From positions 675,021 through 739,020 of the forward strand of contig CAWDKV010000011.1 in the NCBI GenBank assembly GCA_963803015.1: 64,000 nt of DNA, given 5' to 3'. Below, piece after piece: positions 28,226 through 31,200 of the stretch (position 1 is the first letter of the stretch; each line of letters opens with the position of its first letter). Position numbers and translations under genes: made by a program. The notes beneath the pieces are model-generated. The model was not told where the DNA came from and searched no databases. It worked only from the letters and a program-made list of their open reading frames with translations. This DNA comes from an uncultured Gammaproteobacteria bacterium (GTDB lineage: Bacteria; Pseudomonadota; Gammaproteobacteria; Berkiellales; Berkiellaceae).

Positions 28226-31200
28226 ATGCCAAAAGACGAAGAAAATAAAGCACCAGAAGTTGATCAATGGGGTGATCCGATCATACCAGCAAGTAAGACG
28301 GGAACACCCGACAGTAAAGATAGTGAAAAACTTACTCCAGAACAAATGCGGAATGCCCTGAAAGGAGGCTTCCAGCAAGCATTAGGGAATAAAGGTGTAG
28401 CTGAAATTAAAAAAACGGATGCTGCAAAGGAAATCATGCAAGATCAAAAAGGACTTTCAGTACAAGAACGAATAAAACTAGCAGAAGAAGAAAAAAAGAG
28501 AAAAGCTGAAGAAGCTAAAGCTGCTGAAGCAGCTGCAGCAAATGCGGAAACAGCTGCACAAGTCACCACCTCATCATTCTCCGCGTCAAGTGCTCCGCCA
28601 CCACCACCTCCTCCCGGAAAAGCGCCACCTCCACCTCCTCCTCCCGGAAAAGGAAAAGGAGCATTTCCAAAGGCCCCAGCCGCAGCTTCTGCTCCTGTAG
28701 TTGAGGCAACTGCTAAACCAGCCTCTCCTATCGCTTCTGCCTCTGATGCTGCTGCAGGTGGACCAGAACAACTAACAGACAAAGCAAAACTAGCTGCGTC
28801 TATCGCTGCAGGATTGCAAAAGAAAAATATAAGAGCTGCTGTAGCTGATGATGAAAATGAAAATGATCAAGACGAAAAAAATGATCAAGACGAAATTTGG
28901 GAGGACGATGCTCCTGCTATCGCAAAAGGGAAAGCTGCAGCCGCTCCGCCTTCCCCTCCTGTTGCAGCTGCATCAGCAGAACCAACCGCCGCACCAGCAG
29001 CACAACCAGCTGCAGCACTAGCAGAACCAGATACACCACCAGCAGCATCTTCTTTTTATACTCTAAGCGAAGATGAGCTGCCCCCTGCGGATACCTATCA
29101 ACCCATTGCAGAACCCACAAACATTTTATCTCGTCAACAAATAGAGAAATTAGACGAATTCATTTCTACAGAAGAATCCTCGCGGAATGGATCTTTTACA
29201 AATGAAATTATTACCCAATTCACAGAAGTAATCGATGAAGAAATTAAACGAGGAAAATTCAATTCATCTCAAAGAGAGAAATTAGAGAATCTTCGCACAC
29301 TTGTGAAGCATGCAGAAAATTTGAACGAAAGCTCAAAAAAAGTTGAATCTGCATTAAAAGAATATGCAACTTCACCGGGCAACGTAAAAAATCAAACTGA
29401 ATTAAGTCAAGCATTAGAAGCTCACTATCAAAACTTAGAAACATATACAACAGTGTATAATAAATGCCTATATCCAATAGGTGGCTTGCAAACAGATAGT
29501 AATTTTTCGGCATTGTTTGACAAGCTAAATTCTATTTCAACCTCCCTTCCAGCACCGATAAATTTTACTACGGGACAAGCCGGCAAACCATTAAATTTCG
29601 AAACTCGCGCTATGGCCCCGATACAAAGAGGTCCTAGATACTCATTACTGTTAAATGAACTCATTACGCTCTCTCCTGAAAATCTTGTTCAAAAGCAATT
29701 CTTAACTGACTTAGTTACAGCAAACCAACAGTCAAATATCAGAATGAATTCATCCACTTTAATCAACCCAGCGGCAGAAGTGGAAAAGAAAGCAAAAGCA
29801 GAAAAGAAAGCAAAGGTCAAAGTAGAAAAGACAGCTAAAACAGCAACATCCACCTCGTTTTTTGGCAACATTGTTGAAACCGTTGGAACAACGTTGGGGA
29901 TTTTGCCAGCAAAGTCAGGTATAGCAAAAACAGAGGCAACAGCAACTTCTTTACCTGTAACAGAGAGTACGGCAAGAGCAGCTTCCGCACCACCAGCATT
30001 AGTAACACCTCCAGTTCCACCGCCACCAGCTGAAGCAATGCCAAGTATAGATCTTACGGAAAATGAACCGTTAACTGATGAAAGTGAGCCGGAACCTGCA
30101 GTGGGTTCTGACACAGAATCTGACATAGAAGATGAAGGGTCTGATATAGAAGAAGAAGCAGAACAGGCAACTCCTTCAGCTACAGATGAAGTTAAAGCAC
30201 CTCGGCCTCCACTACGATCATCATACACAGCGCCGCTTCCGCCGCTGTCAGCACAATCACCAGGCGCAAAAAGCTCAGCTGCGGCATCTTCAGGAGCACC
30301 ACCTGCAGCAGCCACGACGGCTGGTACTGCCGCAGCAAAATCAGATCCGCCTCCTCCTCCGCCACGATCAAAGTTACTAGCGACAGCAACAACAGCTGCA
30401 ACAACAGCTGCAACAACAGCTGCAACAACAGCTGCAACAACAGCTGCAACAACAGCTGCAGCAACACCTGCAGCAACAACACCTGCTGCAACAACACCTG
30501 CTGCAACAACACCTGCTGCAACAACACCTGCAGCAACAACATCTGCAGCAGCAACACCAATAGCCAAAACGCCGCCTGGTGACAAGTCATCAACACCTGT
30601 CGATACATCACGAGAAGAAGCTGAAAACATCTTAAAAGAACATATTGAAAATTGGCCTCAAGTAAAAGGTAGTGGTGGTGAAGAGCTAGGTGAGCAATTC
30701 GTTGCTCTTGTTGCACTTGCGCTAAAAGCACTCTCTTTAGGGGGAACTGTCGCTGATATTAAATTTGGGAAACTGTTCAATGATAAATCAGATGAATTAA
30801 AAAATCTGAATAAAGAGAAAATAAAGCTTCAAGGAGACATAAGAACATTAGAGAATCAGCTTGGGCAAGCAACACCAGGCAGCCCAGAGGCTCAAAGATT
30901 AACAACAGAATTAACGACGAAAAGAGGGGAGCTTTCTCAAGTTGAGGCAAGAATTGCTAGTAGCGCAAATGGAACATTTGAAGCTGGAAGACAAGATTTG
31001 CATGCCCAAGTCACTTCAGCTGGGCAAGATGCTGCAGAAATGGAATCAGCAATCTTTACTGCTGCGCCACCGCCTCCTCCTCCACGAGCTCCCGCAGCAA
31101 CTGACCCAACAATAGCGGGGACTAAAGTGGCAGCGGCTCCTCCACCTCCAGCAGCGGCTATACCTGCAGCTACCCAATTGAAAGCACCGCCGCCTCCTCC

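Follow-up and report, generated by a model that had tools for sequence, protein, structure and literature searches.

A Dbl-homology protein with polyproline tracts and a tryptophan-ended acidic run as a candidate actin-targeting effector of a Berkiella-like bacterium

Here, we present an analysis of a gene, referred to as Q, located in a 64,000-nucleotide stretch of DNA from an uncultured gammaproteobacterium of the family Berkiellaceae (assembly GCA_963803015.1, contig CAWDKV010000011.1, positions 675,021 to 739,020 of the forward strand; hereafter the window, to which window coordinates refer). The product of Q is probably an effector that mimics eukaryotic proteins and targets the actin cytoskeleton, and we hold this broad claim with good confidence. 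The narrower claim, which is the likeliest of the readings considered although we give it only even odds, is that a segment in its N-terminal part is a functional A-type motif docking on the Arp2/3 complex, flanked by polyproline tracts that would recruit profilin or SH3-domain proteins, in an effector that is translocated. What leads us to the actin-targeting reading is the presence of four independent actin-related elements in two adjacent, partly paralogous and lineage-specific genes, Q and its downstream neighbour P2, of an intracellular bacterium. Being a short linear motif, a Trp-acidic peptide cannot gain statistical significance from its sequence alone, and the case therefore rests on context: the Dbl-homology (DH) domain, the WH2 motif of P2, the polyproline tracts and the Trp-acidic clusters are stronger evidence than the similarity of the helix in the segment. 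Secretion, Arp2/3 binding, guanine nucleotide exchange factor (GEF) activity and the direction of the effect on Arp2/3 are properties that we infer from these features. The features of Q are the following.

28226–32197, + strand: gene Q, 1323 aa, modular and rich in low-complexity sequence, a single uninterrupted open reading frame (ORF) containing the flagged segment
28592–28660, + strand: proline-rich region, aa 123–145, APPPPPPPGK twice and then GKG, with the class II SH3-ligand pattern PxxPxK in each unit (regular-expression match)
28781–28846, + strand: amphipathic basic helix KAKLAASIAAGLQKKNIRAAVA, aa 186–207, C-like or WH2-like and assignable to neither
28847–28909, + strand: acidic run DDENENDQDEKNDQDEIWEDD, aa 208–228, with Trp225, a candidate A-type Arp2/3-docking motif
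28860–28895, + strand: exact 18-bp tandem duplication in the acidic run, encoding NDQDEK and NDQDEI (TRF, 2.0 copies, 100% match)
29120–29755, + strand: DH domain of Rho-type GEFs (RhoGEF), about aa 299–510, Pfam PF00621, with CR1-like EFISTEES and CR3-like PIQRGPRYSLLLNEL
29774–29836, + strand: polybasic stretch EVEKKAKAEKKAKVKVEKTAK and then hydrophobic FFGNIVETVGTTLGIL, read from the translation, at the usual position of a PH domain
30347–30370, + strand: polyproline-basic tract DPPPPPPRSK, aa 707–716, from a polyproline scan
31067–31204, + strand: polyproline cluster of AAPPPPPPRAP (aa 946–956), AAAPPPPAAA (aa 969–978) and KAPPPPPRTA (aa 986–995), from a motif scan
31709–32125, + strand: C-terminal alpha/beta domain, aa 1162–1300, common only to Q and P2

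The flagged peptides all lie in one frame of the + strand inside the Q ORF, at the coordinates given in the initial annotation of this DNA. The gene starts at an ATG at 28226 with the ribosome-binding site AAGAGGA upstream and stops at 32195–32197, and the ORFs found over it on the opposite strand are by-products of its Ala/Pro/Thr repeats. That annotation had traced the polyproline sequence to a near-duplicated DNA unit, which is indeed the case: the two 30-bp units (28592–28651, encoding the two APPPPPPPGK units of aa 123–142, with the P7 tracts within aa 124–140) are identical at 26/30 positions, and 4/4 differences are third-position and synonymous (chance placement P=0.0077), so that their divergence at third positions only is slight evidence that the peptide is under selection. 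The fit of both units to PxxPxK agrees with the proposed profilin/SH3-type proline-rich region, and the tract also has the length that profilin requires. The helix KAKLAASIAAGLQKKNIRAAVA begins 40 residues beyond the polyproline tract, where about 45 had been reckoned, and has a hydrophobic moment of 0.33 vs 0.30 for the C (connector) helix of N-WASP. It is followed, as had been described, by the acidic run ending in IWEDD, which holds 13 acidic residues and one basic. The whole protein has 3 Trp in its 1323 residues, and one of them stands exactly at the C-terminal end of its longest acidic run. The 18-bp duplication within that run is a recent expansion, and the spacing from helix to Trp would be 22 residues without it.

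The DH domain, starting about 70 residues beyond the acidic run, is the sole Pfam domain found in Q. For PF00621 its score is 27.9 bits in the complete protein and rises to 33.5 bits (E 6e-8) when only aa 289–525 are scanned, against a cut-off of 27.6. A profile of the domain, built together with its one detected relative (described below), matches almost exclusively DH domains in the PDB, including those of an Entamoeba RhoGEF (8zlf), P-Rex1, Vav, intersectin, Trio, BCR, NET1 and Tiam1. A single-sequence AlphaFold2 model of the region is all-helical with a mean predicted local distance difference test score (pLDDT) of 48, which is too low for a fold search. No PH domain follows the DH domain in the Pfam search; an adjacent PH domain is typical of the family and not universal. 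The polybasic and hydrophobic stretch at this position may bind membranes.

The second gene, P2, follows directly on Q in the same orientation, and its sequence points more clearly to actin binding than that of Q does.

32212–34122, + strand: gene P2, 636 aa, with actin-type motifs and a C-terminal domain common with Q
32227–32271, + strand: N-terminal Trp-acidic motif PNDWDDDDHEEEED, placed as is the inverted N-terminal A domain of cortactin
32503–32565, + strand: WH2 motif KGKDDLLAAIRAGKDLKKAPT, aa 98–118, Pfam PF02205, preceded by KPPPPAPPSP
33343–33450, + strand: polyproline-basic tracts VPPPPPPRRKK and VVPPPPPPRRDE, from a motif scan, with PPPPPPRR in both
33643–34065, + strand: C-terminal domain, aa 478–618, homologous to aa 1162–1300 of Q

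The WH2 motif of P2 scores 23.2 bits in a scan of the whole protein and 29.6 bits when scanned as a peptide, with a cut-off of 23.1, and its matches to PDB-checked WH2 sequences are equalled at 0–36 of 1.36 million background positions. The C-terminal domains of Q and P2 are 30% identical (BLASTP E 2e-15), which makes P2 a partial paralogue of Q. The domain is modelled by AlphaFold2 with a pLDDT of 74 and has no Foldseek match in the PDB (best E 0.086, TM 0.23) and no homologue in a search of 5.8 billion proteins. The N-terminal halves of the two proteins give no significant alignment outside the polyproline tracts; both proteins carry polyproline-basic tracts, an acidic cluster with a Trp and, following a polyproline tract, a short helix. 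No NCBIfam family was found for either protein. As further observations on P2, its N-terminal motif NDWDDDDHEEEED is of the NDWDDDD type, and acidic repeats of the LPDAE type are encoded at 33121–33197.

The frequency of these motifs was assessed against a background of six-frame ORFs comprising 1.35 million residues and 19,429 Trp. None of these (0/19,429) has the acidic surroundings seen in Q, defined as 8 or more D/E among the 20 residues before the Trp and 2 or more among the 3 after it, and the symmetric pattern of the P2 motif is reached by 18/19,429. When composition is controlled for by relocating the Trp residues, the probability is P~0.02 for Q and P2 jointly and P~0.1 for Q alone. 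Runs of at least five prolines number 7 in Q and P2 together vs 12 in the entire background, and seven polyproline tracts of the two proteins each have a K or R within the two residues after them, the polyproline-basic tracts of Q itself numbering five. The composite of flagged motifs exceeds chance.

For the comparison with the WASP family, the sequences of N-WASP, WASP and WAVE1 were confirmed against the PDB chains 6uhc_H, 1ej5_A and 3p8c_D, and only these three were used in the tests. In cryo-EM, the residues of the N-WASP C helix that face the Arps are I463, V464, L467 and M471 (PMC7274804, from which the EWE pocket for the A motif is also taken). In an ungapped register, L189, A190, I193 and L197 of Q fall on these residues, with a bulky hydrophobic residue at 3/4 positions, QKK of Q falls on QKR of N-WASP, and the acidic runs start at an equal offset. 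The counted spacing from helix to Trp is 28 residues in Q, as in N-WASP, and 26 in WASP. Alignment to the curated sequences by hhalign, using a three-sequence connector-acidic (CA) profile, places KNIRAAVADDENEN...DEIWED on KRSKAIHSSDEDED...DEWED (P 0.0027, for one pre-selected 58-mer); this match begins at K200 and covers mostly the acidic part, with the Trp on the Trp of the profile.

Several results weigh against a WASP-like function of the segment. In ungapped comparison the helix by itself scores at chance level against the C regions of N-WASP, WASP and WAVE1, each of which has its best match in Q outside the helix, with 2–4 equally good matches expected per protein of this length. A five-sequence CA hidden Markov model (HMM) run on the six-frame ORFs gives 2.3 bits, which is not significant, from a weak model that includes unconfirmed WAVE2 and Las17 sequences. 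Neither Q aa 1–278 nor the isolated helix peptide matches the Pfam WH2 model (PF02205) at E<=10, for which the P2 WH2 served as positive control with 29.6 bits, and the stretch that separates the helix from the polyproline tract holds no V motif of its own. Ending at aa 228 of 1323, the module is internal and not C-terminal. The residue preceding its Trp is Ile, vs D or E in the A motifs of N-WASP, WASP and WAVE1, and K200 of Q stands at the position of R477 of WASP, where R477K is presumably a disease-associated change that weakens the protein. The acidic run owes part of its length to an exact duplication of very recent origin, and such drift is seen in low-complexity sequence. No orthologue of the N-terminal region of Q that might show conservation of Trp225 was found in the protein, genome, metagenome and viral contig collections searched, and no secretion-system (dot/icm) gene lies within the window.

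The proposal of the initial annotation that the segment is a CA mimic joined to a proline-rich domain is hence only partly supported: the proline-rich region, the basic helix, the acidic run, the Trp placed at the C-terminal end of this run and the 28-residue spacing stand, as does the register of the helix on the C region, while the similarity of the helix is at chance, a V motif is lacking and the position is internal. Binding of the segment to Arp2/3 in the manner of WASP is plausible. As judged from these comparisons, Q is a motif mimic and not a homologue or member of the WASP family; in Pfam, the WASP-family N-terminal domains WH1/EVH1, SHD, WAHD and GBD are absent from it, an exhaustive phmmer search of 1.84 billion representatives contained no WASP-family relative of it, and a phmmer search of the PDB with the CA segment gave zero matches. 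Separately, an unconfirmed sequence of the Las17 C region is identical to the helix at 8/21 positions, with 0.035 such matches expected per protein, a far closer match than those of the three confirmed C regions; no confirmation of this sequence was found in the PDB or in papers, and it was set aside.

If the segment does dock on Arp2/3, the proposed mechanism would run as follows. In the cytosol of the host, an amoeba, the polyproline-basic tracts would recruit profilin-actin and/or SH3-domain proteins, and the Trp of IWEDD, within its acidic run, would dock in a basic Trp pocket of Arp2/3, on Arp3 or ArpC1, of the sort that receives the A domains of WASP-family factors, cortactin, Arpin and SidG of Legionella, with the helix before the acidic run perhaps adding a contact of C or WH2 type. 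A Rho-family GTPase would be activated by the DH domain, which lies 70 residues further on, so that GTPase signalling and Arp2/3 recruitment would be combined on one polypeptide. P2 would supply a WH2 for G-actin together with its own Trp-acidic and polyproline motifs, might act together with Q and could provide the missing V function in trans. The Trp pockets of Arp3 and ArpC1 serve activators, the inhibitor Arpin and cortactin alike (PMC10613254). CA-like peptides without a V motif can be competitive inhibitors, and the effect on Arp2/3 may be activating, tethering or inhibitory. In a more speculative extension, which we regard as distinctly unlikely in its full form, Q and P2 would be a paired mimic of the actin machinery, with GEF, Arp2/3 docking and polyproline functions in Q and a WH2 and an inverted cortactin-like acidic motif in P2, and would build branched actin on a Berkiella-like vacuole, which could supply the force for nuclear entry or the ruffling of the nuclear envelope observed with it.

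The foremost alternative is low-complexity coincidence, in which Q is a genuine repeat-rich protein that may be secreted, and the helix and the acidic Trp run are by-products of fast, biased sequence evolution and bind nothing specifically, the actin function lying only in the DH domain and the WH2 of P2. The exact duplication in the acidic run, the many other tandem repeats in Q, the chance-level score of the helix against both C and WH2 sequences, the 2.3 bits of the CA HMM and the value of P~0.1 for Q in the composition-controlled test are all in keeping with this explanation. We nevertheless consider it unlikely, with regard to the fact that one of only three Trp in Q ends its longest acidic run, that P2 repeats the pairing of Trp and acidic cluster, that the geometry equals that of N-WASP, and that independent actin-related modules are present in both genes. 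Should the motifs prove non-functional, the locus would be a clean case of low-complexity effector sequence imitating a short linear motif by chance.

Next in probability, and already quite doubtful, is the alternative that the initial annotation itself had offered, namely that the helix is a degenerate WH2. The helix and acidic run would then form a 'WA' unit binding G-actin, making Q an assembler of WH2 and polyproline elements like MavH/RavH, BimA and TARP, with the acidic tail secondary. The best local alignment of the P2 WH2 within Q aa 1–300 does fall on the helix (KAKLAASIAAGLQKKNIRAAVA vs KDDLLAAIRAGKDLKKAPTSIA, 8/22 identical), as do the best matches in Q of the WAVE1 and WAVE2 WH2 motifs, and the helix follows a polyproline tract in both genes. 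Standard models moreover fail to detect the divergent 'WH2-like' helices of MavH and RavH (PMC10381072, PMC13481308). Set against these points, the isolated peptide has no Pfam WH2 match, the alignment scores at chance (shuffle P=0.55; 0.23–0.26 expected per protein), and the Leu of LKK[VT] is replaced, giving GLQKKN vs GxxLKKV.

A further alternative, which we hold to be improbable, keeps the Trp-acidic motif and changes its partner, which would be another host reader such as kinesin-1 light chain, COPI or the AP-2 appendages; in a nucleus-invading bacterium, the motif could instead act as an acidic peptide of activation-domain type. Several eukaryotic systems use short acidic-Trp motifs. The vacuoles of Berkiella do enter the nucleus (PMC6507137). 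Against this proposal, the patterns [LMTIV][DENSQ]W[DE], WxxF-acidic, DPW/DPF/NPF and clathrin-box are unmatched, Q has E-I-W-E with the hydrophobic residue at -1 and not at the -2 position of kinesin light-chain motifs, and all other recognisable modules of Q and P2 indicate actin. Least probable of all is a Vav-like arrangement, in which the helix and acidic region would autoinhibit the DH domain, as does the acidic region directly N-terminal to the DH domain of Vav with its helix on the GTPase-binding face, or would mask the strongly basic stretch after the DH domain; the segment does lie some 70 residues N-terminal to a DH domain for which Vav is among the best PDB profile matches, but the stand-alone DH relative described below has no such region, and the Trp-acidic motif of P2, which has no DH domain, would be left unexplained.

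The exact Q protein is absent from sequence records under either possible start, while the exact P2 protein has entries in NCBI, ENA and Logan and forms a singleton cluster. A word-indexed search with Q aa 1–525 found no relative, its list of 8000 candidates probably being filled by low-complexity words. The exhaustive phmmer search gave only one protein, P0001, for the DH region alone, and three polyproline-driven matches; P0001 was also the only match to the DH profile, the profile of the C-terminal domain had none, and scans of genomes, metagenomes and viral contigs with Q or its domains gave no relative. P0001 is a stand-alone DH protein of 291 aa (PF00621, 31–33% identity) encoded at 190–1065 (+) of a 5.5-kb contig (L082) from run SRR30849500, where its neighbours carry domains of bacterial type (APH kinase, MFS transporter), which suggests a small family of bacterial proteins consisting of a DH domain alone. 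The sole comparison available for the Trp-acidic motif is P2, in which it is kept, but at the N-terminus.

The remainder of Q also holds acidic and Ala/Thr/Pro repeats, and aa ~834–911 look like a coiled coil from weak Pfam matches and heptad-like sequence. Imperfect tandem repeats of 12, 15 and 30 bp at 30386–30558 (+) of the window encode (ATTA)n and (TPAAT)n, resembling a mucin-like linker, and an independent Logan contig (L081, run ERR11630394) that is identical to window positions 30502–35630 breaks exactly within this repeat. A putative second short helix, STFEALEKGLKAARPAA, lies at aa 1004–1020 (window 31235–31285, +), about 15 residues past the three-tract polyproline cluster, so that the order found near the N-terminus, a polyproline tract before a helix with GL[QK]K, recurs here. 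The N-terminus of Q is hydrophilic on direct reading and contains PEVDQWGDPII (aa 10–20, window 28253–28285, +), in which a Trp in mildly acidic context is followed by DP; this peptide is loosely like the inverted A domain of cortactin, DDWETDPDFV, sits at the same protein end as NDWDDDD in P2, and might be either a further motif for docking on Arp2/3 or a product of chance. The CPI motif LxHxTxxRPK(6x)P (consensus from PMC10381072) is absent from Q and P2, even with a loosened pattern, and patterns for EVH1 (FPPPP type), kinesin light-chain, clathrin-box and DPW/NPF ligands are unmatched, a weak FPKAP excepted.

The window as a whole is ordinary bacterial chromosome, with serS, ftsK, clpB, icd, mnmA, purB, prpBCD and a pair of UvrD-like helicase and PD-(D/E)XK nuclease genes, among which orphan genes are interspersed; Rfam and tRNA scans of it were empty, and scans for promoters and terminators gave no informative signal. 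The PEP-synthase regulatory protein (PSRP) encoded beside Q shares 72–75% identity with its counterparts in Candidatus Berkiella and related gammaproteobacterial metagenome-assembled genomes (MAGs), and this one protein is the basis for placing the bacterium near Berkiella. The PSRP gene and prpD are immediate neighbours in the two closest genomes (L001, L002); the junction between them is occupied by Q and P2 in the window, by an unrelated 787-aa ORF of unknown function (11020–13383, +) in an uncultured Berkiella MAG (L003) and by a gap of ~680 bp in a further genome (L004). The comparison of this junction marks Q and P2 as a lineage-specific insertion at a variable spot, and this site is apparently a hot spot where lineage-specific genes accumulate. 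Berkiella bacteria are obligately intracellular in amoebae and associated with the host nucleus, and have Dot/Icm systems with hundreds of putative effectors (PMC9803151, a genome comparison that makes no mention of actin, WH2 or RhoGEF); their vacuoles traffic to the host nucleus and enter it by an unknown mechanism (PMC6507137).

An ankyrin-repeat protein of 698 aa (22503–24599, +), encoded 3.6 kb upstream of Q, matches in its non-ankyrin part (aa 346–564) the NCBIfam model of the Dot/Icm core effector AnkH/LegA3 (E 4e-26, far below the equivalog cut-off) and is probably a divergent AnkH-like effector. This gene, the kinship with Berkiella and the Dot/Icm systems of Berkiella genomes lend indirect support to a translocation of Q by Dot/Icm. 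Four ORFs encoding 453–622 aa (9755–11623, +; 11604–13292, -; 20887–22347, +; 59905–61266, +) have no Pfam or NCBIfam family and are candidate lineage-specific effectors. The PEP synthase gene ppsA (24774–27172, -) is spread over three frames (461, 149 and 228 aa) vs one 797-aa ORF in all close relatives, and is either a pseudogene with two frameshifts or affected by indel errors of the assembly. Just past the PSRP stop and about 140 bp upstream of the Q ATG, a perfect 13-bp tandem direct repeat (TCTTAAATACTTA twice, 28062–28087, +) has no further exact copies within the window and possibly serves to bind a regulator, with a period other than the 11 bp of PmrA sites.

Mimicry of actin nucleation-promoting factors by bacteria is already known from ActA, RickA, BimA and TARP and from SidG, MavH and RavH of Legionella, and DH-motif proteins have been known in Legionella as well (PMC4256840). 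New, in the literature searched, is a bacterial protein that would join a DH RhoGEF domain, polyproline tracts and an A-type Trp-acidic motif, as is its WH2-bearing neighbour with a domain in common. If the proposed functions hold, the pair would offer a handle on how Berkiella-like bacteria move or deform host membranes, and Q would be a natural compression of a pathway, in which GEF and Arp2/3 ligand stand in one chain and the route from GTPase to WASP to Arp2/3 is collapsed.

Among the known systems, WASP, N-WASP and WAVE resemble Q in the upstream proline-rich region, the amphipathic basic helix and the acidic run ending in a Trp and acidic residues, and differ in that Q has no detectable V/WH2, WH1, SHD or GBD and carries its module (aa 123–228) internally, with a DH domain following. 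For cortactin and Arpin, which bind Arp2/3 by an A domain only, a Trp with some five acidic residues around it suffices for docking on Arp3 (PMC10613254). The A motif of cortactin, DDWETDPDFV, is N-terminal and inverted, and resembles NDWDDDD of P2 and, more loosely, DQWGDPII of Q. Cortactin and Arpin are however eukaryotic and built from other domains (cortactin repeats and SH3, and the Arpin fold), and an A motif alone can stabilise or inhibit. The surface proteins ActA of Listeria, RickA of Rickettsia and BimA of Burkholderia thailandensis share with Q and P2 the combining of proline-rich repeats, actin-binding helices and acidic Trp motifs, with which intracellular bacteria harness Arp2/3 (established; reviewed in PMC10381072), and the order of elements in ActA is permuted with the acidic part first, like that of P2. 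These proteins are anchored on the surface and drive actin tails, and none has a DH domain, whereas Q has no export signal or anchor evident by eye and is more likely injected.

Closer in lineage are the effectors of Legionella. MavH and RavH are WH2-like, membrane-dependent actin nucleators (PMC10381072, PMC13481308), and resemble Q and P2 as Legionellales effectors made of short actin-regulator motifs and a C-terminal targeting domain; they have no DH domain or A motif, whereas Q and P2 lack the CPI motif and have a C-terminal domain without a detectable relative or known fold. With the known DH proteins, Q shares a eukaryote-type DH domain with CR1-like and CR3-like motifs in the Legionellales, and it differs in having no PH domain and in the fusion to polyproline and Trp-acidic modules. 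A precedent from the same order is SidG of Legionella pneumophila, a Cys-His-Asp enzyme gated by Rac1 that disrupts the cytoskeleton and binds Arp2/3 by an acidic A domain lying inside the protein, for which a Trp is essential (PMC12904589). By this description, SidG and Q are alike in coming from the Legionellales, in the internal acidic cluster with a Trp and in a link to Rho-family GTPases, which is gating by Rac1 in the one and a RhoGEF domain in the other, while Q lacks a Cys-His-Asp catalytic domain in Pfam and has, in its place among the differences, polyproline tracts and a DH domain.

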